DNA of 32,000 nucleotides from Thermofilum adornatum. Its GTDB lineage: Archaea; Thermoproteota; Thermoprotei; Thermofilales; Thermofilaceae. Numbering within the stretch: position 1 is the stretch's first letter; each line of letters begins with the position of its first letter. Where the stretch lies: positions 1,500,001 through 1,532,000 of the forward strand of contig NC_022093.1 of assembly GCF_000446015.1 (NCBI RefSeq), read 5' to 3'. Both the position numbers and the translations under genes were made by a program. The notes under the pieces are model-generated. The model was not told the DNA's origin. It saw only the letters and a list, made by a program, of their open reading frames with translations, and made no database searches. Shown piece after piece: positions 9,443 through 26,015 of the stretch.

Positions 9443-9916
9443 AGAAGAGTAAGGATAAGCTATTACTTTGCTGAAGACAGGTACATAGAGTTGGGCGAAA
9501 AGATTCCAAATATACCTATCGTACATCTCATTATAAAGGTCGGTAGAAAGCGGGCGAGTGAACCAGCAATAGTTGATATGGCTTTGATGGTGGCATTTAT
9601 CCAAACATGGAAATAGTAAAGATGTTTGAGGGTCTAAGCCACCAACAAAAGTTTTCCTGGAAAACCCATCTACGGCTTATCAGAGTTTGAGGTTTATACG
9701 GCTGAAGCCTTCCTTTATCAAGTAGGAAGTCTGACAAGTCGCGGAGATATTAAAGTTTACATTCCCACAGAGCCCGAGCTTCTCACGGGAGAAGTATTGA
9801 TAGGAAGGGAGATTTTAAACAGCAAGGCTCACTCCATAATTTTGGATATGAAGAGCAAACAAAACGCTAATAGAGCTACCATAGGTTCAACAAAAAGAGT
9901 ACAGTTCCCTATATGA
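9443..9916 (+). pseudogene. Possible decayed retropepsin-like (clan AA aspartic protease family) gene
   Basis: A single frame is open over 9443-9613 and 9638-9916, interrupted by TAG, TAA and TAA within 9614-9637. Neither piece has a usable start. The pieces read ...IPIVHLIIKVGRKRASEPAIVDMALMV... and ...GDIKVYIPTEPELLTGEVLIGREILNSKAHSIILD..., resembling small archaeal aspartic proteases, but D-T-G is replaced by D-M-A. Confidence 0.3.
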
Positions 9917-11339
9917 TCGATTTCACAGGCTTTAAATTGTGAAGCTCGTAGAGCCTTGCTAGAACATTGTCGAGCCTTTCGAGCTGGTCTCCTTCTAGCC
10001 CCTTGGGGGTATGCTTTGCGAGGATTTCTTGGACTTTTGCATGTGCCTTCTCAAGTAGGCTTACTCCCTTAGTTTTTGTTCTGGGCCCTAGATCCCATAT
10101 ACTTGGAATGTATATCTCCTTCCTGTAGTTCTGCCTCGTATGCTTGAGCGCCAAGAAGTTTCCCCTCTTATCTAGCACGCCTTCTCCTAAGACCTGCAAG
10201 GCCATATTGTCTTTTTCGAAGCCCCTCGCGAGTCTATCTGCAACTAATATTGCTTCACTGTCCAGGACAAGTTTTTCTAGAGACTGCACGCTTTCATACT
10301 CAAGCATCCCGGCTCCTGACACTATGTCGAAGCCCGCCATCGCCGCGACCACAGCAGTGTATGTCGTCTCTGCCCCCGCTTGGTAGTCTACCAGCTTAGA
10401 GTCGCTCAAAGCCATGTATGTATGTGTAGGTAGGTCAAGGAGCCTCGCAACGTCTCTATATCCGAGACTTATGAGGACAGCTTCCGGAGAAGTTATAGAT
10501 GCTGTCCCATAGTATGGGTGAATCATCGTGGGGCTACCACCGTATATTATCGGCGCTCCTGGTCGGACTGCCTGGGATATAACTATCCCGCTCAGGTTCT
10601 CTGCGTGGTGCTGTACCAATGCGCCATATATTGTCACAGGTGATGTTGCGCCTAGACCCGGCATCGATATGAGCTCGGCTGGAACGTTTAGCCTAGCAAG
10701 GTCTACAAGGTTCCTCGACGTCACGGTGCTCCAGGACAGGGGAGGTGTGGGGCATATGTCAAATATTGCGAAGGGCTTTTCTGCGTAGTCTTCCCTTATG
10801 CTTGCAAGCATATCTACCATTAGCGGGAGGTTTTCCACCGTAAATGCGCCAGTAACCACTGGCTTCGTGGAATACTTTAGGACAACGTACAGCCTAACAG
10901 CATCTCTCACTTCTACTGGTACGTCTGAAGGCACAAGGGCAGTGCTCTGAGCCCTCAAGCCGGGCGATGCATCGACAAGGGTTACAAGATTCTTTAGGTC
11001 TATAAGGGTAGGGTTTCTAGGCTCCGACGATCCGTAGTCAAGGATACGGATCGCCGCAGACCCTGGGTCAAAGATCCTCGCCCCCTCTCCAAGGACTCCT
11101 ACAAGGTTTCCTTCTCGGTCATAAAGCCTTATTCTCCTTGGCACCGTCTTCAGCGAATCCTCGACAAGGCTCTCAGGCAAAACAACCCTTCCATCCTTCC
11201 TGACACCACCAGCCTTGACAACTATCTCTTCTACGCTTTTATCTTCGAAGAACACTCCAACGGTGCCCAGAACCCTGAGTGCCTCGGCATGTAGTTCTTC
11301 TGCCTCATCCCTGCTAAGCAGGGATAGGTTTGGCTTCAT
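9909..11339 (-). CDS. MttB-superfamily methyltransferase (trimethylamine methyltransferase family, non-pyrrolysine type)
   Basis: The N-terminus LSRDEAEELHAEALRVLGTVGVFFEDKSVEEIVVKAGGVRKDGRVVLPESLVEDSLKTVPRRIRLYDREG fits the MttB (COG5598) family. The 476-aa ORF is uninterrupted with no in-frame TAG. An ATGA overlap links it to the upstream corrinoid gene, and GAGGAGGGGTGGAG (SD) lies upstream. Confidence 0.85.
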   Translation of the reverse strand: MKPNLSLLSRDEAEELHAEALRVLGTVGVFFEDKSVEEIVVKAGGVRKDGRVVLPESLVEDSLKTVPRRIRLYDREGNLVGVLGEGARIFDPGSAAIRILDYGSSEPRNPTLIDLKNLVTLVDASPGLRAQSTALVPSDVPVEVRDAVRLYVVLKYSTKPVVTGAFTVENLPLMVDMLASIREDYAEKPFAIFDICPTPPLSWSTVTSRNLVDLARLNVPAELISMPGLGATSPVTIYGALVQHHAENLSGIVISQAVRPGAPIIYGGSPTMIHPYYGTASITSPEAVLISLGYRDVARLLDLPTHTYMALSDSKLVDYQAGAETTYTAVVAAMAGFDIVSGAGMLEYESVQSLEKLVLDSEAILVADRLARGFEKDNMALQVLGEGVLDKRGNFLALKHTRQNYRKEIYIPSIWDLGPRTKTKGVSLLEKAHAKVQEILAKHTPKGLEGDQLERLDNVLARLYELHNLKPVKSII

Positions 11340-11995
11340 CTAGCTCCACCCCTCCTCTTTGCAAGCATCTCTTTTACTATCCTGACAGACTCGAACGCGT
11401 CCCTACCCCAGACATCTGCTCCTATCTCTCTTACCCATTCCTCAGTTACAGGCGCACCCCCAGCTATTACAATGACCTTTTCTCTAATACCCCTCTTCTT
11501 AAGCTCTTCTATAACGTTTCTCTGCTCAAGCATCGTTGTAGTCATGAGCGCACTCATCCCGACAACGTCCGCGTTATACTTCTCGGCGGCCTCTGCGAAC
11601 CTCTCCGGAGGCACATCAACGCCAAGATCTATAACCTGGAAGCCCTCAGCCTCGAAGACAGCCGCTGCCAGATTCTTGCCAAGCTCGTGTATGTCTCCCC
11701 TCACAGTGCCAAACACAGCTACACCCGTAACCGGAACATCAGATGACCCCTTGATGTGTGGCCTTAGAACATCCATGCTAGCCCTGAAAGCCTCAGCCGA
11801 CGCGACCAACTCGGGGATAAAGTATTCGCCCTTCTCGTAGAGCTCCCCCACGCGCCTCATCGCTGGAACAAGTATGTTCGAGATTATTTCTCTGGGAGAC
11901 AGCCCCTCTTCCAATAGCTTTTGGGTAGCATCAGAAGCAAGCCTATCATCGCCGTCGACAATAGCCCTGTATAGCACTTCGCTAGCATCTGACAT
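11336..11995 (-). CDS. Corrinoid (cobalamin-binding) methyl-carrier protein, MtbC/MttC-like
   Basis: An N-terminal helical cap is followed by a Rossmann B12-binding domain. The D-x-H-x-x-G motif is present (GDIHELGKNL), followed by GFQVIDLGVDVP and MSALMTTT. Confidence 0.88.
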   Translation of the reverse strand: MSDASEVLYRAIVDGDDRLASDATQKLLEEGLSPREIISNILVPAMRRVGELYEKGEYFIPELVASAEAFRASMDVLRPHIKGSSDVPVTGVAVFGTVRGDIHELGKNLAAAVFEAEGFQVIDLGVDVPPERFAEAAEKYNADVVGMSALMTTTMLEQRNVIEELKKRGIREKVIVIAGGAPVTEEWVREIGADVWGRDAFESVRIVKEMLAKRRGGAR

Positions 11996-12205: not shown

Positions 12206-12832
12206 CTAGCAAAACTTGGACTCCTCAAAAAAGGCCCGTTCCGAGGCTACAAATTCCCGTAGTAGCCTAGCCGTACCTCTATAGTTTTCTAGCTTAGCGT
12301 TTTCCTCGAGACACCTCGAATATCCATCGGCCCACTTTTCAATGTGTTCCCGGAAAAGCTTCTCTTGGAGGCACAGATACTCTGGTTGCCGGGTACTAGA
12401 CGCGACGAGGTAGTACATTAGTTCGAGCTCTAGGGCTACATGCTCCAGGGGCAAGCCGACGTCCGGGGCCCTGTCTAGGCAGGCTTCGCGGTAAATCCTT
12501 AGAAGCGAGTCATAGTTGTGGCCGTAGATCGTTCTCTCACCAGTCGCCCAGTATGTCTCGAAGGGGGGACACTTGAGCTCTGGATAGTCGTTCACGAAGA
12601 GCCGAGTATACTCTCCTTTCAGGTCTCCCTGTGAGTTTTCCCAGGCAGTTATCCATGCATCTACAAATTTGTCTATTGTCTCGGGATTCATCTTGACTAA
12701 AGAGACTTGTCTGACGGCTGGCAACAGTGTTTTTAGCTCGTTCTGGGATTCGATGTCGCTCGGAGTATAGAGGGCTAGGCTCAGAACCTTGTACAGTAGT
12801 GCTCTCTCCTCAAAAATCTTTGGACTTAACAA
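12206..12832 (-). CDS. TorD/DmsD-family redox enzyme maturation chaperone
   Basis: EYTRLFVNDYPELKCPPFETYW and LPLEHVALELELMYYL match the TorD family pattern (ey-rLF...cpPyeS-y; pDHia-eLef). TTG start preceded by GGAGAGGT. It is the last gene of the oxidoreductase operon. Confidence 0.75.
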   Translation of the reverse strand: MLSPKIFEERALLYKVLSLALYTPSDIESQNELKTLLPAVRQVSLVKMNPETIDKFVDAWITAWENSQGDLKGEYTRLFVNDYPELKCPPFETYWATGERTIYGHNYDSLLRIYREACLDRAPDVGLPLEHVALELELMYYLVASSTRQPEYLCLQEKLFREHIEKWADGYSRCLEENAKLENYRGTARLLREFVASERAFFEESKFC

Positions 12833-12885
12833 TTTTGACTACCTCTCCAAATAGAAAGGAAAAAGAAAAAATATTTAATTTATTT

Positions 12886-13731
12886 TCACCAGGGTAGCTC
12901 CATTGCGCCGGCGTATACAAGGAGATACCGTGCTAGGAAGCTTTGCAGGATGAGTAGGACTGCAAGTATGAGGAGGTTTGTCTTTGAAGGCTTCTTCTTG
13001 TTGTAGAAGTACACAGCGAATGGTCCAATGAAGCCCAGCAGGTACAGCAGGAGTGTTGCCCACATGTACTCGGTCAACATTAGCTCAACAGAGAACATGA
13101 AAGCCTCAGTCGAGATGTTTGCCAGTGCGAAGTAGAGCGTCATAGTTACGAATGCCAAGAGGGTTGTGATCATCGAGAAGTTGACGAGCTCGCCCGGTAC
13201 ATCCTTTTTAAGAATATAGGCTACCAGTGCATAGAGGCCTACTCCGCTGGAGAGGGCTACGAGGAGGAAAAGCAGTGGTGTAGCTGGGCTCCTCCACAAG
13301 TGGATAGAGCTACGGGCAAGCAGTGTACCAGTATAGGTCATGACGAGGAACGAGAATATAGAGCCCAGTGTTCCCAGGATCTTCATAATCTTCTCGTTAG
13401 CGGCGTAGGGTAGCTTTATGAGTCCGGGTAGAGCGAAGAGCCCCCCGAAAAGCAGTGCAAAAACGTTGAAGAATACGCCCCACGTCATAACTGAGCCAAG
13501 GTTCGGTGTAAGCATGGTGTAGAACGCGGCCTCGGGCTTGCCGAGGTGTGTTATCAGTACGAGTAGACCAAGTAGCAGGGATACCATGCCCGCGAGGGCC
13601 GCCTTGATGTTGAATTCCTTCTCTCCCTTTAGGTAGTAGAGGAAAGCTATGATGAAGGTTGCTACACCCATTCCTCCAAACGTCAAGTCTAGCACTATTT
13701 TAATATCCCAAGCGTGTTGCGGCTCTATCAT
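12886..13731 (-). CDS. NrfD/PsrC-type integral membrane anchor subunit
   Basis: 281 aa with about 8 TM helices, directly downstream of the Fe-S subunit. GAGGTGAGG (SD) lies upstream. Position and topology are as in PsrC/NrfD. Confidence 0.75.
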   Translation of the reverse strand: MIEPQHAWDIKIVLDLTFGGMGVATFIIAFLYYLKGEKEFNIKAALAGMVSLLLGLLVLITHLGKPEAAFYTMLTPNLGSVMTWGVFFNVFALLFGGLFALPGLIKLPYAANEKIMKILGTLGSIFSFLVMTYTGTLLARSSIHLWRSPATPLLFLLVALSSGVGLYALVAYILKKDVPGELVNFSMITTLLAFVTMTLYFALANISTEAFMFSVELMLTEYMWATLLLYLLGFIGPFAVYFYNKKKPSKTNLLILAVLLILQSFLARYLLVYAGAMELPW

Positions 13732-13737
13732 TCATCC

Positions 13738-14340
13738 TCACCTCTTCCTCATGGGAAGAATATAAAACACCTTCGGCTTTGTCCCCTCCTCCTTCTTGAA
13801 TACAGTAGTTGCGCCAGAGTTGACCAGCTTGGATATGGCACTGTTGGGGTCGTCGAGGTCTCCAAACAGCCTTGCACCTGTCGGGCACGTAGTCACACAT
13901 GCAGGATCCATACCCTTCTCCAGTCTGTGCTCGCAGAACGTGCACTTGTCAATCGACCTCAAGTATGGGTCCCAGAACCTGGCACCGTACGGGCACGCTT
14001 GGACGCAGTACTCGCATCCAATGCATTTTGTCTTGTCTACTAGAACAATGCCGTCCTTTGTCTTGAAGCTTGCACCTGTCGGACATACAGAGACACAAGG
14101 CGGGTTCTCGCAGTGCTGGCAAATCATGTGGGTATAGTAGACGGCTACGTTGGGGTATGTTCCCACAATATAGGTGTTAACGTAGGTTCTCTTCTTGAAG
14201 TTCTCAAGAGCCGGCAGACCTTCCGCGATAGCTTTGAATGCTTGCTCCCTGCGGTTCTCGGCTATGCATGCCATCACGCAGGCTCCACACCCGACACATT
14301 TGTTCAGGTCTATTACCATTCCATACCTAGCCATACCCAT
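13738..14340 (-). CDS. 4Fe-4S ferredoxin-type electron-transfer subunit (PsrB/DmsB-like)
   Basis: Four cluster motifs: CVGCGACVMAC, CQHCENPPCVSVCP, CIGCEYCVQACP and CTFCEHRL...CVTTCP. GAGGGGTGA (SD) lies upstream. Confidence 0.9.
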   Translation of the reverse strand: MGMARYGMVIDLNKCVGCGACVMACIAENRREQAFKAIAEGLPALENFKKRTYVNTYIVGTYPNVAVYYTHMICQHCENPPCVSVCPTGASFKTKDGIVLVDKTKCIGCEYCVQACPYGARFWDPYLRSIDKCTFCEHRLEKGMDPACVTTCPTGARLFGDLDDPNSAISKLVNSGATTVFKKEEGTKPKVFYILPMRKR

Positions 14341-14347
14341 TCACCCC

Positions 14348-16873
14348 TCATGCCTTCTCAACACGAACAACAACTTCCTGTGACATGATTCCACCCGCCA
14401 CGGGGTCAGCCTTTACACCTGTCAAAGTATGGTATGGTACACCGAACTTGGTAAAGTGCAGTGCCTCGCTCTTGTGGCCAAAGTCGCTTGAGACCCAGAT
14501 AGTGTCTTCTCTGACAAGGTCTGTCGGGAAGGCGACAGCCTCCACGCTGGCTCCCGTCTCAACACTTATCAGCTTTATCTTGTCGCCCTTCTTTATGCCC
14601 AGGCTCTCAGCAACGCTCCTGTTTATCCATGCCATCCTCTTAAACTCGGGGGTCAGCACTGACAGGAACGGCTCGTCGGCAGTAGACGTGTGCGTCATGG
14701 TGGGGACACGCCCATACACCACATAGAAAGTTGTCTTCCCGTCGGCCTTGCCGTATACCTCTGGCTCTGCCCATGCAACTATGGGATCCCAGTACGGCTG
14801 GTAGCCCTTCTTTGCCTTTATGTTGTTCAATGCGAAGCTAAATATCTCGATCCGTCCAGACGGGGTTAACAGCTGGCCGTTTAGCGTCTTCTGTATCATT
14901 TCCTTGCGGAGCGTCACAGCGTCCTTGACAACGATGAGTCCCTCGCTCTCGAGCTTAGCTACGTCGAGGTTCCTCGCCGAGGCTTGTACCTTGCGTATGC
15001 CTTTTACCCCTTCTTTTTCGTATGCATCTTTGAGCTTTGCTCCCATTGCCTGTGGGTCAGCGGCTCCTAGTGCTTTTGCGAAGTTTACCCAGAACTTGTT
15101 ATAGTAGTCCTCGCCTAGACGTTTCACTATGCCTACGACGATGTCTATAACGTGTCGTGTGTCGTAGAGTGGTTGCACGGCGGCCACACGTGTATGGAAG
15201 CCTAGCACGGGCGCATAAGCCATTCCATAAAGGGGATCATCCCTTTCAAGGAAACTATGCTCGGGCAATACTATGTCGGCGTATAGAACAGTATCGTTCG
15301 GATAAATGTCTACAGCAATAACCTTCTCCAGTTTCTTGAAGGCATTCCTCCACCTTGTAGAGTCGGGGCCTGTCATAGCTAGGTTTGTAGTAAACAGGAA
15401 AACAGTCGAGATCTTGTAGGGGTCTCCCTTCTCGATGGCGTCTAGGAAGCCCTGGAAAGTAAAGCCCTTAGAGGCCATGGCTACGCCCTGCTTTGTCCCC
15501 CATATTCTCATTACGCTTTCCTCGCTGACGTCTGGAGTTGGTGTAGCTGTGCTACCAACACCTGTAATTATTATTCCGTCCTTAATTAGGCCACCAACAA
15601 GGGCATTGAGGATAGCTGCTGCCCTCCACGTCATAACGCTGTTCTTATACTTGGGGTCGTGCCACCCAGTGTCTACTGCGGCTGGCCTAGTCTTTCCGAA
15701 CTCTATTCCGACTTGCCTAATTGTAGCGGCGGGTATGCCGGTTATTTTCTCTGCCCATTCTGGAGTATAATCTGCTACTTTTTCCTTGAGGATCTGGAAG
15801 ACGGGCTTTGCCTTCTTGTCTCCAACCGTAAACTCGCCCTCGAGTGCGGGCAGTATAGCTTCTTCGTGCTTGACTGCCTTGTTCTGTGCAAGGTCCCAGA
15901 CAAGGTACTTGATCTTTCCAGCAGCGTCAGTTCCCGCAGTTAAAGGCGTGCCGTCTTCTGCTACAAGCATCGGTGCGTTTGTAAACTTTCTCAGGAAGTC
16001 TGCGTCGTAGAGCCCCTCAGAAATTACGACGTTGATTAGTGCCAGTAGGAAGGCTAGGTCTGTTCCAGGCCTTATTGGGAGCCAGAGGTCAGCCTTGGCG
16101 GCTGTCTCGCTGAAACGCGGGTCAACAACTACGAGCTTGTAGTTTCCTATTTTCTGGCCTGCCCGTGTCCCGTGCACCACTGAGATGCTTCCAAAGAAGT
16201 TTCTCCTTATAACAACGAGATACTTTATGTTTTCGTAGTCTGTGAGGATCTGAGCGTGAGTGCCTACACCGATAGCACTAGACCATCCGAAAGCTTTGGG
16301 GAAGAAGCATGCCCCTCCGGGTATTCCTATAGCATTGGGAGTGCCAATAGTTTCTGCAAAGGCCTTCATTAAAGGCTCAAGGTAGAGACAGAGGGGCCAG
16401 CCCCCGATCATGGCAACTTCCTTTATTCTTCCCTCAGAGATCAGCTTCTTCAAGTGAGAAGCCACAGCGTCGAGCGCCTGGTCCCAGCTTGCCTCCGTGA
16501 AGCCGGTGAAACTGCCCCTCTGTCCGGGGTCGTTCCTGATAAGCGGCTTTTTCAGCCTGTCCGGGTTATATGTCCTAAACAGTGCAGACTGGCCCCTCGC
16601 ACATATTTTACCAAGGTTTATAGGCCCCTTTGGATTACCCTCAATCTTCTCAATCTTGCCGTCTCTAACCCTAACCAATAGCTGGCACGCTGCAGGACAC
16701 ATCATGCATATTGTGGGAACCCACTTCTCCTCTCCCTGGGCTTCAGTTCTCTGTGTTTGGGGCTTGAGAAGCCTAAGTGTAGGTGTGGACATGGTTGCTG
16801 TTACGCCGACGATCCCAGCGGCCTTGAGGAATTCTCTGCGGCTTAAACTGGTTCTGCTGGTTGTATCGGTCAT
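14348..16873 (-). CDS. Molybdopterin (bis-PGD) oxidoreductase catalytic subunit, TAT-exported, Psr/Phs/Ttr/Arr-like; substrate unknown
   Basis: Twin-arginine signal SRREFLKAAGIVGVTA. N-terminal Fe-S motif CMMCPAACQLLV...ICARG. 841 aa with an A-B-C-chaperone gene order. The candidate Mo/W ligand Cys is in PGGACFFPKAFG. Confidence 0.88.
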   Translation of the reverse strand: MTDTTSRTSLSRREFLKAAGIVGVTATMSTPTLRLLKPQTQRTEAQGEEKWVPTICMMCPAACQLLVRVRDGKIEKIEGNPKGPINLGKICARGQSALFRTYNPDRLKKPLIRNDPGQRGSFTGFTEASWDQALDAVASHLKKLISEGRIKEVAMIGGWPLCLYLEPLMKAFAETIGTPNAIGIPGGACFFPKAFGWSSAIGVGTHAQILTDYENIKYLVVIRRNFFGSISVVHGTRAGQKIGNYKLVVVDPRFSETAAKADLWLPIRPGTDLAFLLALINVVISEGLYDADFLRKFTNAPMLVAEDGTPLTAGTDAAGKIKYLVWDLAQNKAVKHEEAILPALEGEFTVGDKKAKPVFQILKEKVADYTPEWAEKITGIPAATIRQVGIEFGKTRPAAVDTGWHDPKYKNSVMTWRAAAILNALVGGLIKDGIIITGVGSTATPTPDVSEESVMRIWGTKQGVAMASKGFTFQGFLDAIEKGDPYKISTVFLFTTNLAMTGPDSTRWRNAFKKLEKVIAVDIYPNDTVLYADIVLPEHSFLERDDPLYGMAYAPVLGFHTRVAAVQPLYDTRHVIDIVVGIVKRLGEDYYNKFWVNFAKALGAADPQAMGAKLKDAYEKEGVKGIRKVQASARNLDVAKLESEGLIVVKDAVTLRKEMIQKTLNGQLLTPSGRIEIFSFALNNIKAKKGYQPYWDPIVAWAEPEVYGKADGKTTFYVVYGRVPTMTHTSTADEPFLSVLTPEFKRMAWINRSVAESLGIKKGDKIKLISVETGASVEAVAFPTDLVREDTIWVSSDFGHKSEALHFTKFGVPYHTLTGVKADPVAGGIMSQEVVVRVEKA

Positions 16874-16897
16874 ACAATATATTGTTTGTTATTAATC

Positions 16898-16906
16898 AAT
16901 ATAAAT
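16898..16906 (-). promoter_or_regulatory. TATA box (minus strand ATTTATATT) of the oxidoreductase operon
   Basis: It is centred about 29 nt upstream of the ATG at 16873, which implies a leaderless or near-leaderless mRNA. Confidence 0.5.
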
Positions 16907-17049
16907 GATTATGTAAAAATATTAATATTCCTAGACTTGAATATCGTTTTTCATACATATATTTTTAATAACATGTTTTTTGGGATCCCCTATTTCTTCC
17001 TCTTCTGTGGAGCGTCATTATAAGCTGAAGTAGTTCGCTTGTCTAGGTT

Positions 17050-17065
17050 GTTGACGTGCGTCAAC
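17050..17065. promoter_or_regulatory. Palindromic operator candidate 1: GTTGACG-TG-CGTCAAC
   Basis: 7-bp perfect arms with a 2-nt centre. It abuts the upstream (BRE) side of the TATA box at 17066-17076. Confidence 0.5.
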
Positions 17066-17076
17066 TTTATATATTT
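17066..17076 (+). promoter_or_regulatory. TATA box (TTTATATATTT) of the DUF438/HTH operon
   Basis: Canonical archaeal TATA, about 32-40 nt upstream of the GTG at 17108. Confidence 0.55.
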
Positions 17077-17099
17077 GACTCTAATTCATTATTGTTGGC

Positions 17100-17115
17100 G
17101 ATGACACGTGTCAAC
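17100..17115. promoter_or_regulatory. Palindromic operator candidate 2: GA-TGACACGTGTCA-AC
   Basis: A perfect 12-bp palindrome at 17102-17113 overlaps the GTG start (17108). It shares G-(T/A)-TGAC-N4-GTCAAC with site 1. The two centres are exactly 50 bp apart. Confidence 0.5.
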
Positions 17116-18424
17116 AAATTTGGAAAAGATAGAGACCTTGAAAACAATTATCAAGCTATTGCATGAGGGGAAAAGCGTCCAGGAGCTAAAGGAACAATAT
17201 TCAGATCTTCTTAGACAGGTTTCACCCTTGGAGATACCATTCCTGGAACAACAGCTAGTAAGAGAAGGACTTGTGTCGGTGAACGATATACTTAAACTGT
17301 GCGATCTACATGTAGAGCTTTTCAGGGAGTCACTCGAAACCAGGACACTACAAGGTGTGCCCAGTGGTCATCCACTGGACCTCCTAATGAAGGAAAACGA
17401 CTGGATTGCAAAGAGGGCCGAGATCCTTGGAATGTATGCCTCCTCTCTATTGGCGGCAGATCAGGCCAGGACTCCTGGTCTTCTGGAAAACATTAACAGG
17501 ATTCTAGGTGACCTGAAAAAGTTGAGGCTACATTACAGGAAGCTCCAGATGATAGTTTTTCCCTACCTTGAGAGGAGGGGCATCATCGCTGTTCCAAGAG
17601 TCCTCTGGGGAAGAGAAGACCAAGCACTCCGCAAACTACGTGAATTGTCAACAGAGATCGATTCCAAGCTGAAGAGCAAAGAAGCTATAGACCACAAAAA
17701 CCTTGCTGGCCGCCTCTTAGAGCTCTCCCGTGAAATACAGGACTTGGCTTTTCGAGAAGCCAAGATTCTGTTCCCAGCACTCTGGACATTGCTTGGCGAA
17801 GGAGAGTGGGTTGCGATACACGAAATTGCCGGCGAATTCGGCTACATTGTGGATGTCGACATACATGCTTGGAAACCTAACGTTGAGCCCGTACTGCCCT
17901 ACCAAATCAAGCCTATAATAACAGATGAACAGCTAGCAAGGGTTCCCGAAGAATTCAGACAAGTCGTCGCCGAAAAACTGGTGCCAGACGACTATCAAGT
18001 AAACCGAGATGGAGACCTAAACCTGTCGACGGGTTTCCTGGACAAAGTTGAATTAGAAGGCATATTCAAGGCTCTTCCACTAGAGATAACCTTTGCCGAC
18101 ACAAACAGGCGAGTCAGGTTATTCACCAAGAGCGAGACAGCAGAAGGGTTCCCCAGGGCGAAAACAATTATTGGCAGGAGGCTAGAGTTCTGCCACCCAC
18201 CAAGGCTCGAAAACTATGTGAAACTAAACGTCGAAAAATTAGAGCGAGGCCAAGAGAGATACAGGGTCTTCTGGACCAGGATGGGAGACAGGATACTCCG
18301 AGTAATTGTTTCTAGGGTAAACGATTCGAATGGACAGCTAGTAGGCATCCTGGAGATAGTCGAAGACTTCACTGAAATTCTTAATAACAGAGACGAAATA
18401 TTAAAGAAAGTAGTGGTACTCTAG
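17108..18424 (+). CDS. DUF438 / hemerythrin-like / PAS domain protein (COG2461-type putative sensor)
   Basis: The N-terminus IETLKTIIKLLHEGKSVQELKEQYSDLLRQVSPLEIPFLEQQLVREG is DUF438-like. The central part has H/E-rich helices (LCDLHVELFRE, LRLHYRKLQMIVFPYLE, FREAKILFPAL). The C-terminal part ITFADTNRRVRLFTKS...IIGRRLEFCHPPR...FWTRMGDRILRVIVSRVNDSNGQLVGILEIVEDFTEI is PAS-like. Confidence 0.75.
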   Translation: MSTNLEKIETLKTIIKLLHEGKSVQELKEQYSDLLRQVSPLEIPFLEQQLVREGLVSVNDILKLCDLHVELFRESLETRTLQGVPSGHPLDLLMKENDWIAKRAEILGMYASSLLAADQARTPGLLENINRILGDLKKLRLHYRKLQMIVFPYLERRGIIAVPRVLWGREDQALRKLRELSTEIDSKLKSKEAIDHKNLAGRLLELSREIQDLAFREAKILFPALWTLLGEGEWVAIHEIAGEFGYIVDVDIHAWKPNVEPVLPYQIKPIITDEQLARVPEEFRQVVAEKLVPDDYQVNRDGDLNLSTGFLDKVELEGIFKALPLEITFADTNRRVRLFTKSETAEGFPRAKTIIGRRLEFCHPPRLENYVKLNVEKLERGQERYRVFWTRMGDRILRVIVSRVNDSNGQLVGILEIVEDFTEILNNRDEILKKVVVL

Positions 18425-18426
18425 CC

Positions 18427-18831
18427 ATGAGAAGCATATTTGAACTTGCATACCGGTACATCGAGCCCGCAGTAAGGAGACAGCTCGTCCTCGAGCTCTA
18501 CAAAAGAGGCGTAGACAGGCGCAGAATAGTAGAACTCGTCGGCATATCGTCCTCGCTCGTTACCCGTTACATAGCTGGGCAAAGAGGCAACATGCTCGAC
18601 CTAACCCCCTACAGGGACGTAACCATGCTTATATCTCAACTCGCCGAGAAATCTATGGGCATGTCAAAGGAACAAGTAGAGGAACAAATATACCGCATTG
18701 TGCTCTACTTTTTGTCCCACAAGTATTTCTGCAATGTGCACCGTGTTCTTGTACCGGACATAGACCCGACAAAATGCCAAATATGTCCAAGCCTCTTCAA
18801 AAACTCTTCTCTAAGCCCAGAGCTTAGATAG
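18427..18831 (+). CDS. Small HTH transcriptional regulator (COG2522-like) with C-terminal Cys/His cluster
   Basis: RRRIVELVGISSSLVTRYIAGQRG is a helix-turn-helix of the gls-s-vS-Y--gkRG type. The C-terminus CNVH-x13-CQIC could bind a metal. It starts 2 nt after the DUF438 stop. Confidence 0.55.
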   Translation: MRSIFELAYRYIEPAVRRQLVLELYKRGVDRRRIVELVGISSSLVTRYIAGQRGNMLDLTPYRDVTMLISQLAEKSMGMSKEQVEEQIYRIVLYFLSHKYFCNVHRVLVPDIDPTKCQICPSLFKNSSLSPELR

Positions 18832-18894
18832 ATGACTCAAAGTAGCATTTTTCTATATCAAGAAGGACAATGGATATTACGGCATTTAATTACG

Positions 18895-19145
18895 TTAGAT
18901 TAGGTCTACTTCTTCGAGATCCCCGAGTTTAGCCTGTTTTGCCTTGAGCCGTCTTCTTCTCTGCCTTACCCATACAAGTGCCTCATTAATACTTGGAGCC
19001 CTCAAAATGGCTAGCTCGTTTTCCCTTGCCTCTACAATAACGTATCCGCTTTCTTTGATGCCATATTTTTCCCTAAATATCTTGGGATAATTATTTGTCC
19101 CTTTGGGCCCACTTTCAGTTTTTGTTTAACCCTTTGGTAATACAT
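18895..19145 (-). pseudogene. AbrB/SpoVT (MazE/VapB-like) antitoxin-type gene with a 1-nt frameshift
   Basis: Frame 1 from ATG 19145 reads MYYQRVKQKLKVGPKGQIIIP and then stops early. A second frame has no start but reads PKIFREKYGIKESGYVIVEARENELAILRAPS...LEEVDLI*. Joined, they give a canonical looped-hinge AbrB motif. The shift is at a C3 run (plus strand cttgggat, 19081-19088). Confidence 0.55.
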
Positions 19146-19269
19146 ATTAGACCAAGGATAAATAACTTACCCTGACTCCATTATTACTAAAGATTTACTC
19201 TAAAATGTTGTTAACGTGGCCCTTTACTTATACCCTTGGTCTACCAAACCAAAATAGGAAGGTTGTTTT

Positions 19270-20700
19270 CTAACGAGTTTCCTTTAATAGGAGTGGGTTT
19301 GCCATTGCCTTGACGACTGCCTCTTCTGACAGAGGGTCGTCGGTGGGATAGTCTGGGTCCATGAGTAGGGGCAGGGCGAAAACATCTTCAGTTGTGAGCA
19401 TTATTGGTATATCTTTCGTATACAAGTTGTCTTCTATTAGGTCGACCTTGATTGGCCCCCTGGCTGTAAGAAATAAGAGTAGAGAGTTGTTGCCTCCCTC
19501 AACCTTTACTCTTAGCTTGTCAGCTCTGGCTATTATCCTCGTGGTCTTTATGCCTGCCCGTTTGCCGTTGCCCTCGGCCTCGTACTCAATCAGGGGTCCA
19601 TTAGGCCCGCTTGTTATTACCACTCTTCCCTGCCTGATCGCATCGAGGAATGCCTCCTCCGTCAAGCTCTCCATGTATAACAATGTTGTCGGCTCGCCCA
19701 GCCTGGGGATCCCCTCCTCGTGCCTTATCTTGTGGGCATCGCTCCCACCAATAGCGACCACGTTTCTACCGCTACTAAGAAGCTCGACGTACTTCCTCAG
19801 GGAGAGATAGTTAAAGTACTCCCACATTGTCTGCCAAGCCTCCATCACCCAGACTTTTTCCCAGTTCCCCAACAGCCAAGGATAGTCCGGCTTTGGGTGA
19901 TTGATTGACGCGATGTAGCCATACTTCTCGGCCAGCTCTATTATCTTGGTCATATCACTCTCAGTTCTCGCGCGGAAGTCTATCCATTTCCGCACACCAA
20001 ACAGGTTCATGTGCCCATAATACGTGGTTATCTCCATCCCGGGAAAGATTTTCACCGGCCCCCCAATTTCCAGGCATTCCCGCACGTGGCTGATAGTATT
20101 GTGATCCGTAAGTGCGACAAAGTCTAGACCCTTCTCGCGGGCCTTTTCAGCTATCTCCCAGACCTCAGCATCCCCATCACTGTGAACCGAGTGCGTGTGA
20201 AGGTCTCCCTTGTACCACCTTACTCCACCATACGGAACGGATGTGCTTGTTGTTCTCCTGTATGTATATTCCTCCTCGAAGCCCCTCATATCCACGGAAA
20301 TAGCGTAGTCGCAGCCACATGACGGAACCTTGTAAAGCCCAAGGACAATGTGCCACGTTCCAGGCTTTACCTCGCCGGGAAGGTAGCCAGGAGTAGCATA
20401 GCGTTCCCCAACTACTATCTTCTTTTTTGCTGTCCCGCTCCACCCCCTAAAGGCTTCTGGCTCAGCAGGGAAGTCTACCCTGCCAGGAGAAAACAGGCCG
20501 ATGTCTATTTCGCATACCCCAGTGTCTTTTGCCCTGTAGCTGTACTCTATTACGATGGACTTTACGCCAGAAGGGACATCCATAGGTATAAGCAGGAAGT
20601 CGCTCTTTTCCTTGTCCTGGGGGCTAATAGTCCCCCTTAAATCTAGACGAGATATGCTCACAAAATAGAATCGTTTTATTCCCCTAAATGTTTTTTGCAA
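19270..20700 (-). CDS. CehA/McbA-family PHP-domain metallohydrolase with N-terminal beta-sandwich domain
   Basis: WYKGDLHTHSVHSDGD and FVALTDHNT are PHP metal-binding motifs, and GGSDAH occurs later. The N-terminal roughly 150 aa (..FRGWSG...PGYLPGEVKPGTWHIVLGLYKV..) is typical of this family. Confidence 0.75.
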   Translation of the reverse strand: MQKTFRGIKRFYFVSISRLDLRGTISPQDKEKSDFLLIPMDVPSGVKSIVIEYSYRAKDTGVCEIDIGLFSPGRVDFPAEPEAFRGWSGTAKKKIVVGERYATPGYLPGEVKPGTWHIVLGLYKVPSCGCDYAISVDMRGFEEEYTYRRTTSTSVPYGGVRWYKGDLHTHSVHSDGDAEVWEIAEKAREKGLDFVALTDHNTISHVRECLEIGGPVKIFPGMEITTYYGHMNLFGVRKWIDFRARTESDMTKIIELAEKYGYIASINHPKPDYPWLLGNWEKVWVMEAWQTMWEYFNYLSLRKYVELLSSGRNVVAIGGSDAHKIRHEEGIPRLGEPTTLLYMESLTEEAFLDAIRQGRVVITSGPNGPLIEYEAEGNGKRAGIKTTRIIARADKLRVKVEGGNNSLLLFLTARGPIKVDLIEDNLYTKDIPIMLTTEDVFALPLLMDPDYPTDDPLSEEAVVKAMANPLLLKETR

Positions 20701-23631: not shown

Positions 23632-25509
23632 CTACTCTAGCTTTAGCCTGTTCCTTATGCGCCTAGTTGCCTCTGAGAGCTCGCTTATCCCGAGCTCTTT
23701 TAGTGTCTCGTCCCGAGGTATGCCGTACTGGTCCCAGCCAAGGTAGTCGAAGTACTCTTTTTTCTGTTTCTCGAGCTCTGTCCTATCCACTGCCTTGCCC
23801 TTGAATGGCCCAGACGGAAGTGGCTCGTAGAACCTGGGCGGGTTGTCGTCGTGTATCCTGGGGTCCCAATAGAGGTCTGGCCCTCCGAGGAGGAGTAACA
23901 CTCTCTGGAGGGAAACTATTCTCCTGGCGTGCTCCCTGAACCATTTTTCGCTAGAGATTTCCCAGCCTGTTATTGCTGTCAGGAATTGGTATGGCAGGTC
24001 GTCTACGGCGTTGAAGGAGCATATGACCGCGGAGTCCTCAAATGCAGCTGTGAACTCGCCCCAAGCCTTCTCTACTGGCAACCTTGGCGGGCTTGTGTGG
24101 TCTCCTCCCTGTACGCCTACAGCATAGGTAAAAGCCTGTGGGAAGTCTTTTCCGCTCCTCGCGCCGTGGGCACCTATGCCTATACCCTTTACGTGTACGG
24201 CGTAGCGCGACAGGTCTTGTCCCTTTAATTTGCTCAGCTTGTCTGCGGCCCTTGCTACTCCCTCTGCTAGTATATCTCCTATGCCCTTCCTGTAGGCTAT
24301 TGCCTCGAGTAGCCTTGCGAACGCCTCGGTGTCTCCCCATTTCAGGTCGAAGCCTACCTCTTCCCTTGTGAGGATCCCCTTCTCGCATAGCTCGGCGGCG
24401 AAGCCGGCAACGTTTCCTGTCTGTATGCCGCACAGGCCTAGGTCGTCTGCTAGGCTCGAGAGGTATATGTTTCCCCTAGGCTCGAAGACGCCGAGGTTGG
24501 GGCCTAGGTACGCCTGTAGCTCGTAGTCCGGCCCGTCCGTAACTGTACCATTGTATTTCCCACCGATTAGCCTCGAGATCTTCATACATGTTGATGGGCA
24601 GCCATAGTCTCCCCAGTACCTCTTGACCCAGTGTGCCTCATAGTTGTTTACGCCCATTGTCCTGGCATCGTGCCACTCTTCCTGCCAGTTCCTTATCGGC
24701 TCGCTACTCGTAAGGTTTGCTACCTCGTATCCACCGCTGCTTGTCCCCCACTGTTTCCAGAAAATGTTCTGGTTCAGCCTGTTCCACGCCTCCCTTACCA
24801 GTAGCTTTACCCATTCTGGGTGCTTGGCCGGCGGCATGGGCCCAAAGCCCTTGGCTACCACGGCCTTGAGCTTCTTGGACCCCATTACAGCCCCGTACCC
24901 GCCGTAGCCCGCTGCATGTGTAAGCTTTGCCATTACAGCGGCTGTCCTGACCATATTTTCTCCGGCTGGCCCTATGTAGACGAAGGAGGGCTCCTTTGTC
25001 AAGCCCACGTGGGCAAGGTTTTTCCTCTTGAGCTCGCCCCAGACCTCGCTGAAGAGCTTCTGGAACGTTTCCCTGCCCCTGAGGCCCCATAGGTGCTCTG
25101 CAGACCTAACCTCGACCTTTTCTCCCTCTATATAGATGTATACGGGGTCCTTCGAGGCTCCCTTTACTATGAGGCCGTCGTAGCCTGCGGCCCGTAGCTC
25201 GATTGCAAGCTCGCTTGACACTACAGAGCCCACGACGCCGTTTGTCTGAGGAGACTTGCCCGAGACAGCGAGCTTTACGCCTGGATAGTAGCCGGTCAGG
25301 GGACCTGTCAGGAATAGTAGGAGGTTTTCGGGCCCCAGCGGGTCCACTTGTTCCCACTTGTGCCCGAGCTCTTTCCAGAGGATGTACGCAGCTAGGCCCC
25401 TGCCCCCTATGAACTTGTAGGCTGTCTCTTCGTCGAGCTCTATTACCCTGTCTTTGTCTCTTGAGAGGTCTACCTCTAGTATTTTCCCGTTATAGCCGGG
25501 TATGTTCAT
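23632..25509 (-). CDS. aor: Aldehyde:ferredoxin oxidoreductase family tungsto/molybdopterin enzyme
   Basis: The N-terminus GKILEVDLSRDKDRVIELDEETAYKFIGGRGLAAYILWKEL is the classic AOR N-terminal domain. 625 aa. An ATGA overlap links it to the upstream ferredoxin gene, and GGTGGTGAG (SD) is present. Confidence 0.9.
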   Translation of the reverse strand: MNIPGYNGKILEVDLSRDKDRVIELDEETAYKFIGGRGLAAYILWKELGHKWEQVDPLGPENLLLFLTGPLTGYYPGVKLAVSGKSPQTNGVVGSVVSSELAIELRAAGYDGLIVKGASKDPVYIYIEGEKVEVRSAEHLWGLRGRETFQKLFSEVWGELKRKNLAHVGLTKEPSFVYIGPAGENMVRTAAVMAKLTHAAGYGGYGAVMGSKKLKAVVAKGFGPMPPAKHPEWVKLLVREAWNRLNQNIFWKQWGTSSGGYEVANLTSSEPIRNWQEEWHDARTMGVNNYEAHWVKRYWGDYGCPSTCMKISRLIGGKYNGTVTDGPDYELQAYLGPNLGVFEPRGNIYLSSLADDLGLCGIQTGNVAGFAAELCEKGILTREEVGFDLKWGDTEAFARLLEAIAYRKGIGDILAEGVARAADKLSKLKGQDLSRYAVHVKGIGIGAHGARSGKDFPQAFTYAVGVQGGDHTSPPRLPVEKAWGEFTAAFEDSAVICSFNAVDDLPYQFLTAITGWEISSEKWFREHARRIVSLQRVLLLLGGPDLYWDPRIHDDNPPRFYEPLPSGPFKGKAVDRTELEKQKKEYFDYLGWDQYGIPRDETLKELGISELSEATRRIRNRLKLE

Positions 25510-26015
25510 TTCTCACCACCATACATTGTCTCGTAGAGCCTTTGTGCTACGGCCTCGGGCAGGGTAGAGTATATCTTGAAGGATACGCTCCGGTAGGGCA
25601 CGACCCTCAGGGCCCCGTAGCCCGCTTCTTGGCAAGCCTTTACGCATTCTGGCTCGCCCCCGCAGAGGTCGCATACAAGTGCCTTTCTCGTCTTCGGGTG
25701 TAGCCTCATGACCTTTCCCGGGCATGCACGTACACAATCTCCACAGCCCGTGCATTTCTCCTCGTCGACTAGCACTGCCCCAGTAGAGTCGTCTACCCTC
25801 AGGGCTGAGTACTTGCATGCCTTCACGCATGGATAGTCCCTGCACTGTGTGCAGAGGTGTGGGACGTCTACTCCTGGGAAGAACTCGAATACCCTTATTC
25901 TGCTTGCCTCTGGCCAGACTGTTCCCTCGTGTTTTAGGCTACATGCAACTTCGCAGAGCCTGCAGCCTGAGCATTTTAGTGGGTCACGTAGAATAAAGAT
26001 AGGTTGCCTTGACAC
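25506..26015 (-). CDS. Four-cluster [4Fe-4S] ferredoxin-like electron-transfer subunit, co-transcribed with AOR
   Basis: 16 Cys in four motifs: CSGCRLCEVAC, CTQCRDYPCVKAC, CTGCGDCVRACP and CDLCGGEPECVKAC. No signal peptide. GTG start at 26015. Confidence 0.85.
   Translation of the reverse strand: MSRQPIFILRDPLKCSGCRLCEVACSLKHEGTVWPEASRIRVFEFFPGVDVPHLCTQCRDYPCVKACKYSALRVDDSTGAVLVDEEKCTGCGDCVRACPGKVMRLHPKTRKALVCDLCGGEPECVKACQEAGYGALRVVPYRSVSFKIYSTLPEAVAQRLYETMYGGEK

Follow-up and report, generated by a model that had tools for sequence, protein, structure and literature searches.

The archaeal thiamine regulator ThiR is built from a helix-turn-helix (HTH) domain and a motif of three cysteines and one histidine (Cys3His) fused to a ThiN domain, and it reportedly binds palindromic operators at its target promoters, in work attributed to Rodionov et al. 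in 2017. In Pyrococcus furiosus, PF0601 is named as ThiR (PMC10746257, which cites Rodionov et al. 2017, J Bacteriol 199:e00743-16). This text concerns a pair of adjacent genes on a stretch of 32,000 nucleotides from Thermofilum adornatum (contig NC_022093.1, positions 1,500,001 to 1,532,000 of the forward strand; this whole stretch is called the window). The second gene encodes a 134-aa protein that aligns over its whole length with the N-terminal part of ThiR-type proteins, and the first a 438-aa protein with a domain of unknown function 438 (DUF438), a hemerythrin-like domain and a PAS_10 domain. The two genes are kept together in several archaeal lineages, and a palindrome is centred exactly before the start codon of the first gene in most of these loci. 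We tentatively read the pair as a split regulator that controls its own expression.

Other described systems resemble one or the other half of the pair. In IscR, a member of the Rrf2 family, the ligand set comprises three cysteines and one histidine. The hemerythrin-type di-iron RIC proteins (YtfE, ScdA), which have four histidines and two glutamates as ligands in the order H...HxxxE...H...HxxxE, are functionally linked to Suf and interact with Suf proteins (PMC12720416). The two solved structures most relevant to the large protein, P. furiosus PF0695 (PDB 3CAX) and the C-domain of SMU_1151c (PDB 2QKP), are structural-genomics entries titled 'uncharacterized protein'. DUF438 itself appears in the literature as a domain of unknown function whose occurrence correlates with growth temperature (bioRxiv 10.1101/271569), and no paper assigning it a function was found in the searchable literature, which agrees with an earlier note on this DNA, made from the letters alone, that had called its function experimentally unestablished.

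A conserved gene pair with palindromes at its promoter

Both genes lie on the plus strand. The large gene occupies 17108-18424, with a GTG start codon at 17108-17110, and the small gene occupies 18427-18831, with an ATG start; only two bases (18425-18426) separate the stop codon of the first from the start codon of the second, as had been noted earlier. Because the two reading frames differ and a stop codon stands between them, the products do not form the single polypeptide that defines a one-component regulator, and judged by its sequence the pair could only be a split form of one.

A genome scan seeded with an alignment of five small-protein sequences, which reached close relatives only, returned 14 loci. 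In all 12 loci that could be evaluated, the small gene is directly preceded, on the same strand, by a full DUF438/hemerythrin-like/PAS gene; one of these loci (L012) is broken by frameshifts. The other two are a locus cut at a contig end and a distant, partial ThiR-like match (L019:4471-5729) located beside, and convergent with, a 261-aa open reading frame (ORF) that by reading of its sequence, including an FAD-binding GAGPAG motif, resembles the thiazole synthase Thi4. The reverse look-up, seeded with DUF438 proteins of Fervidicoccus fontis, Desulfurococcaceae, Ignisphaera, Korarchaeum and one metagenome contig, found a 124-150-aa homologue of the small protein directly downstream in five of five cases, with gaps of -1 to 3 nt. 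The locus sample is biased towards Thermoproteota and Korarchaeota, with bacterial DUF438 proteins left aside. Adjacency, strand and start/stop coupling are kept in Thermofilum, Fervidicoccus, Desulfurococcales, Ignisphaera, Zestosphaera and Korarchaeum, and another lineage has the two genes side by side in divergent orientation. The earlier proposal had named a lack of co-conservation as one finding that would count against it, and the outcome (12/12 and 5/5 loci) went the other way.

An all-versus-all comparison of the flanks identified the pair as the sole conserved unit, with no other gene family recurring. The neighbours in the other loci are unrelated and include BREX and restriction-modification genes, a copper ATPase, ABC transporters and a rubredoxin-like gene. 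Some of them have a metal or oxidative-stress flavour, namely a divergent RUBY_RBDX gene of rubredoxin type beside the pair in Ignisphaera (L004:5429-5764, minus strand) and YHS and P-type ATPase genes downstream of the pair in a Desulfurococcaceae metagenome-assembled genome (MAG; L003:7785-10417, plus strand), and no theme is common across the loci. A toxin-antitoxin interpretation was considered and dropped, given the sensory folds in the large protein and the unrelated chromosomal contexts, generally free of mobile-element linkage.

The region upstream of the large gene contains two candidate operators about 50 bp apart. The first, O1 (17050-17065), is the perfect palindrome GTTGACGTGCGTCAAC with a TTGAC-N4-GTCAA core, and it directly abuts a TATA-like box, TTTATATAT (17066-17074, plus strand), a putative promoter element about 42 nt upstream of the start codon. 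The second, O2 (17101-17114), is the 14-nt palindrome ATGACACGTGTCAA, centred exactly in front of the GTG start codon. The palindrome TTGACAC/GTGTCAA is centred in this way in 14 of the 17 non-redundant loci; its non-coding half is as conserved as its coding half, and every such gene has TCA as its second codon. A second copy centred at -50 to -53 and abutting a TATA-like box is present in six loci (the window, L001, L003, L006, L011 and L015), and TATA-like boxes are found at -37 to -44 in L001, L003, L006, L011, L016 and L108. One site at the TATA box or B recognition element (BRE) and one at the transcript start is the classic layout of an archaeal repressor.

In 160 kb of pair loci, exact matches to TGACNNNNGTCA number 17 where 2.4 are expected, and every copy lies on a DUF438 start or within about 120 bp upstream of one. 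The motif was present in 19 of 19 loci with DUF438 versus none of eight without it. Two pair loci were added later: L110 has the motif, and in the Korarchaeum sp. MAG (L108:4860-5000), where the pair is present and the layout is kept, TTGAC-N4-GTCAA is replaced by another perfect palindrome, TTTACCATACGGTAAA, which directly adjoins the TATA box TTTATAAA. This exchange looks like co-evolution of operator and regulator.

In its domain content the large protein does not stand out within the DUF438/hemerythrin/PAS_10 family: at least 429 close homologues have all three domains. DUF438 (PF04282; residues 11-77, about 17138-17338) is matched with E 2e-21 and 76 bits against a Pfam cut-off of 25, or 80.8 bits for the isolated N-terminus, and PAS_10 (PF13596; residues 317-422, about 18056-18373) with E 5e-17 and 63 bits against 22.1. 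The Hemerythrin match (PF01814; residues 88-225, about 17369-17782) has E 6e-8 and 33.7 bits, little above the cut-off of 25.3, and is graded 'weak' in some homologues. The Pfam scan returned no DNA-binding, catalytic or output domain, and so the earlier description of this protein was borne out on all these points.

The AlphaFold2 (AF2) model of the large protein has a pLDDT of 87 and a pTM of 0.81, with a helical bundle at pLDDT 85-97. The closest solved structure is that of PF0695, with E 3e-56 over residues 84-422 and a Foldseek TM score of 0.85. PF0695 shares the hemerythrin-like and PAS_10 part, including the motifs GHP, EN, HY, FPYxERRG, FREN, SEGEW and CHPP, but lacks the DUF438 N-domain, and its PDB title records neither function nor partner. 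The C-terminal domain of the model matches the SMU_1151c C-domain (TM 0.82) and also resembles the sensory PAS domains of FixL, Aer2, DosP and NifL as well as LOV PAS domains (Foldseek probability 1.00). Among homologues the residues C65, D66, H68, H88, E96, H142, E155, D171, E217, E231 and C362-H363-P364 are invariant. A RIC-like identity was tried and dropped. The large protein resembles RIC, YtfE and ScdA in having a small helical N-terminal domain followed by a hemerythrin-like four-helix bundle, but it differs from them in the additional PAS_10 domain, in candidate ligands that, compared by position, appear not to keep the pattern of four histidines and two glutamates, and in its N-terminus: residues 1-91, scanned to E 10, matched DUF438 and, at chance level, DUF433, MerR_1 and DUF2802, with no match to ScdA_N. 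RIC was also absent from the top 50 Foldseek matches of the model.

A ThiR-type module, alone and with a partner

The HTH of the small protein (residues 17-50, about 18475-18576) is matched by HTH_23 with 20.5 bits, below the Pfam threshold of 24.6, and is backed by HTH_3 matches of family profiles in relatives and by an all-helical AF2 model (pLDDT 88). The Cys3His motif, C102-x2-H105-x11-C117-x2-C120 (about 18730-18786), has its four residues invariant in 100 of 100 aligned relatives, and P14 and Y48 are, like these four, invariant in alignments of both 50 and 100 members. The earlier reading of an HTH followed by C-x3-H...C-x2-C therefore holds for the HTH and the C-x2-C part and needs correction at the first spacing, which is C-x2-H.

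The family comprises 294 representative clusters in an exhaustive profile search and 1941 proteins in a profile search of a larger collection; a 99%-identical Thermofilum sp. protein bears the name transcriptional regulator in a public collection. No Pfam or NCBIfam model covers the family. Foldseek with the AF2 model found nothing in the PDB at E below 0.9, and thus no solved relative of the whole fold, and sequence and profile searches of the PDB returned only generic HTH pieces. None of the 150 best family members fuses a DUF438/hemerythrin/PAS protein to the HTH/Cys3His module.

The small protein aligns with the N-terminus of a ThiN-fused protein (P0226) with an hhalign probability of 99.4% and E 1e-21 over 122 columns; the whole 134-aa protein, Cys3His motif included, corresponds to the N-terminal ~130 residues of HTH+ThiN proteins of about 303 aa, and the motif is found in the ThiN-fused proteins P0204, P0226, P0244 and P0248. 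By this alignment, the small protein corresponds to the DNA-binding module of ThiR, another archaeal protein, standing on its own. The small protein ends at residue 134 with no match to ThiN (PF10120) and is therefore, by domain content, not a ThiR; moreover, neither the window nor any of 16 related loci has a thi gene next to the pair. It also differs from ThiR in its candidate operator sequence and regulon and in having a separate, sensor-like partner instead of a fused ThiN domain.

Two side branches were seen among the relatives. Five proteins of 214-237 aa (P0276, P0292, P0293, P0302 and P0305) form a related family with two tandem HTH modules, each ending in C-R-I-C in place of C-x2-H...C-x2-C. 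P0153 (222 aa) starts with a small-protein N-terminus like that of Ignisphaera (residues 1-67) and continues into flavodoxin-like sequence that has no Pfam match; it is either a true fusion or a chimera from assembly or a frameshift.

A sister clade consists of HTH/Cys3His proteins of 115-125 aa from DPANN and marine archaea (loci L022-L107, for example L022:3885-8372 and L025:3869-6365). A gene for SufB/SufD, cysteine desulfurase or NifU lies within 5 kb in 56 of its 80 metagenome loci. Iron-sulfur (Fe-S) genes are directly adjacent in 49 of the 80, being co-oriented and just downstream in 33 and divergent in 14. All sister-clade loci with at least 1.5 kb on both sides have Fe-S biogenesis genes nearby, and none has DUF438. 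This clade has a palindrome of its own, TTAAC-N4-GTTAA, observed 64 times in 366 kb (1.4 expected), which in 54 of 80 loci just precedes the small gene, at a distance of 30-85 nt, while most other copies are located at a separated sufB start. At L025:3869-4000, two direct copies of a unit of about 20 nt (TATAGTTTAATAAAATTAAA) precede a member of this clade. The gene contexts make the clade a candidate regulator of archaeal Fe-S biogenesis; no described archaeal regulator of suf or Fe-S biogenesis was found in the searchable literature, nor was a paper on the gene pair, its operator or this clade.

The palindromes of the two clades both have a 5-4-5 layout and differ by one base per half-site. 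Because a one-base difference of this kind is expected of homologous DNA-binding domains, the small protein of the window probably binds O1 (17050-17065) and O2 (17101-17114), and the comparison between clades provides the strongest indirect evidence for such binding.

The arrangement recalls IscR and NsrR of the Rrf2 family, SufR, and the NsrR-ytfE circuit, in which ytfE encodes RIC. The shared features are a small HTH protein, here putatively autoregulated, and a C-terminal cluster of three cysteines and one histidine or other ligand; the sister clade adds the position first in, or divergent to, Fe-S biogenesis genes, and the clade of the window the link to a hemerythrin-type protein. The likeness is a functional analogy without relationship in sequence or fold, as the small protein has no Rrf2 or SufR match in Pfam or NCBIfam and its Foldseek match to NsrR (5N07) has E 6.6 over just 41 columns.

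Possible sensing and control by the pair

The reading that we prefer, although with less than even confidence, is that the pair is a self-contained, autoregulated two-gene operon acting as a split one-component regulator. The 134-aa protein would be the DNA-binding half and would recognize the TTGAC-N4-GTCAA palindromes, probably as a dimer. With O1 abutting the TATA box and O2 covering the start codon and the transcript start, occupation of both sites would block access of the TATA-binding protein (TBP), transcription factor B (TFB) and RNA polymerase, and in this way may repress the operon. Start/stop coupling would yield nearly equal amounts of the two proteins. The 438-aa protein, in place of the fused ThiN of ThiR, would be the signal-input half: it may bind a metal or small ligand through which O2, NO, redox or iron status is read, and would alter DNA binding by the regulator through protein-protein contact. 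The fusion of the same DNA-binding module to the ligand-binding ThiN domain in ThiR-type proteins lends weight to the idea of a split regulator. An input role of the large protein is suggested, indirectly, by the strict co-occurrence, the start/stop coupling and the sensory PAS fold in a protein devoid of an enzymatic or output domain.

Several observations weigh against this reading and in part favor a different division of labor, in which the small protein is itself the sensor, letting go of the palindromes when an Fe-S cluster or a redox-sensitive metal at its Cys3His site is lost or damaged, and in which the 438-aa protein is the regulated effector, handling iron, O2 or NO or carrying out repair, as in NsrR-ytfE and IscR-isc. 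The contact between the two proteins on which a split sensor depends is so far a prediction, and the metal binding expected of the hemerythrin-like domain is uncertain, since the canonical di-iron pattern appears not to be kept: H88 and H142 (plus H68 just upstream) are the invariant residues among the candidate histidine ligands, residue 146 (H142+4) is variable, and no invariant histidine stands at the third and fourth histidine positions of RIC (H167 and H211, PMC12720416; compared by position only). The motif is absent from the rest of the 160 kb of flanks, leaving the DUF438 promoter as the sole visible target, which fits a regulator with its regulated effector at least as well. The suf-linked clade lacks the partner, and its cognate palindrome stands both by its own gene and where suf genes start; the Cys3His residues are invariant in all clades, so the small protein may be the sensor, its own Cys/His site being the simplest one. 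Self-sensing is also favored by the ligand set of IscR, three cysteines and one histidine as here, and by the interaction of hemerythrin-type RIC proteins with Suf proteins. The same four residues are, however, kept in ThiR-type proteins, where the signal is presumably read by ThiN, and the site may accordingly be structural zinc; near-equimolar synthesis is unusual for a regulator and its effector; and what the large protein offers is a sensory PAS fold without any recognizable enzyme domain and, as described above, neither the N-terminus nor the fold match of RIC nor, it appears, its ligand pattern. Self-sensing by the small protein is a possibility to be taken seriously, if on the doubtful side, and it is not mutually exclusive with the split sensor. 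Of the sensor/output pair in the earlier note, then, the pairing stands as conserved and the split architecture gains in plausibility, while either protein may be the sensor.

The other explanations concern what the palindromes are for. The same note had suggested that the pair is a local O2, NO or redox switch for the divergent operon (12206-16873, minus strand), and had proposed to check whether it tracks such operons elsewhere. That operon encodes a complex like PsrABC/Phs, with a molybdopterin oxidoreductase similar to PsrA/PhsA that carries a TAT signal, a 4Fe-4S subunit, NrfD and a chaperone of NarJ/TorD type, and it shares with the pair an intergenic region of 234 bp (16874-17107) in which O1 lies; its respiratory character also speaks for the idea. 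But no homologue of the window's molybdopterin oxidoreductase (PsrA), PsrB or NrfD was found within 5-6 kb of the pair in any of 16 other non-redundant loci, O1 and O2 are 177-241 bp away from the psrA start codon, close against the TATA box of the opposite promoter, and the only other match in the window, at 14412-14425 inside the psrA coding sequence, is a near-match within chance expectation. The sole conserved cis-element sits at the promoter of the pair itself. The comparison of loci led us to reject control of the Psr operon, which we regard as very improbable. Slightly less probable still is that the adjacency has no regulatory meaning, the palindrome being an RNA hairpin that masks the start codon, as a translational control or a thermosensor, or else a site bound by some unrelated factor, and the small protein a zinc-stabilized DNA-binding protein with other targets. 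O2 would indeed be transcribed and includes the start codon, and the correlation of DUF438 with growth temperature would suit a thermosensor. Yet the copies of O1 precede the TATA box and hence stay outside the transcript, a stem of just 5 bp with a 4-nt loop is slight for a hyperthermophile, in the sister clade the same 5-4-5 layout precedes the small gene and recurs where suf genes start, and the co-occurrence of motif and pair is strict.

Surroundings in the window and wider meaning

The remaining features around the pair are of local interest. A run of five T (18848-18852, plus strand), 17 nt past the stop codon of the small gene, is a candidate archaeal oligo-T terminator of the two-gene operon, and Rfam gave no match in 16000-20000. 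Two adjacent short ORFs of 37 and 36 aa on the minus strand (18895-19145; MYYQRVKQKLKVGPKGQIIIPRYLG... and ...RAPSINEALVWVRQRRRRLKAKQAKLGDLEEVDLI) resemble a disrupted antitoxin gene of AbrB/VapB type; they are located in the 438-bp gap between the pair and a convergent gene (19270-20700, minus strand) for a 476-aa PHP metallohydrolase of the CehA/McbA family (NCBIfam NF038032, 189 bits), which is not kept beside the pair in other loci. Directly downstream of the Psr-like operon (9909-11995, minus strand) are a gene of the MttB family (trimethylamine methyltransferase-like) and then one for a B12-binding corrinoid protein, which belong here to Thermofilum and not to a methanogen. Farther away, an aldehyde:ferredoxin oxidoreductase gene (AFOR_N/AFOR_C, 625 aa; region 23632-26015, minus strand), with a gene similar to 4Fe-4S dicluster ferredoxins upstream, marks the GC maximum of the window (0.56).

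What appears to be new in this locus is a ThiR-type regulator with a separately encoded, putative sensor. For the DUF438/hemerythrin/PAS proteins, which are widespread in thermophiles, the pair provides a partner that is obligate, a predicted operator and a circuit open to testing, and the DNA-binding module of ThiR emerges as a unit that archaea reuse in fused, split and stand-alone form and whose 5-4-5 palindromic operators can be predicted. For DPANN and marine archaea, the sister clade supplies a candidate regulator of Fe-S cluster biogenesis. A broader proposal, which we consider rather unlikely as it stands, is that the HTH/Cys3His module represents an undescribed archaeal family of transcription factors that sense Fe-S clusters (or iron), a functional counterpart of bacterial IscR, SufR and NsrR, acting on suf and nifU genes through TTAAC-N4-GTTAA and, through TTGAC-N4-GTCAA, on the DUF438 protein, with which it would also cooperate. 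If true, both clades would belong to an O2-, NO- or iron-responsive circuit for Fe-S damage in hyperthermophilic archaea, and DUF438 proteins would receive their first functional context.

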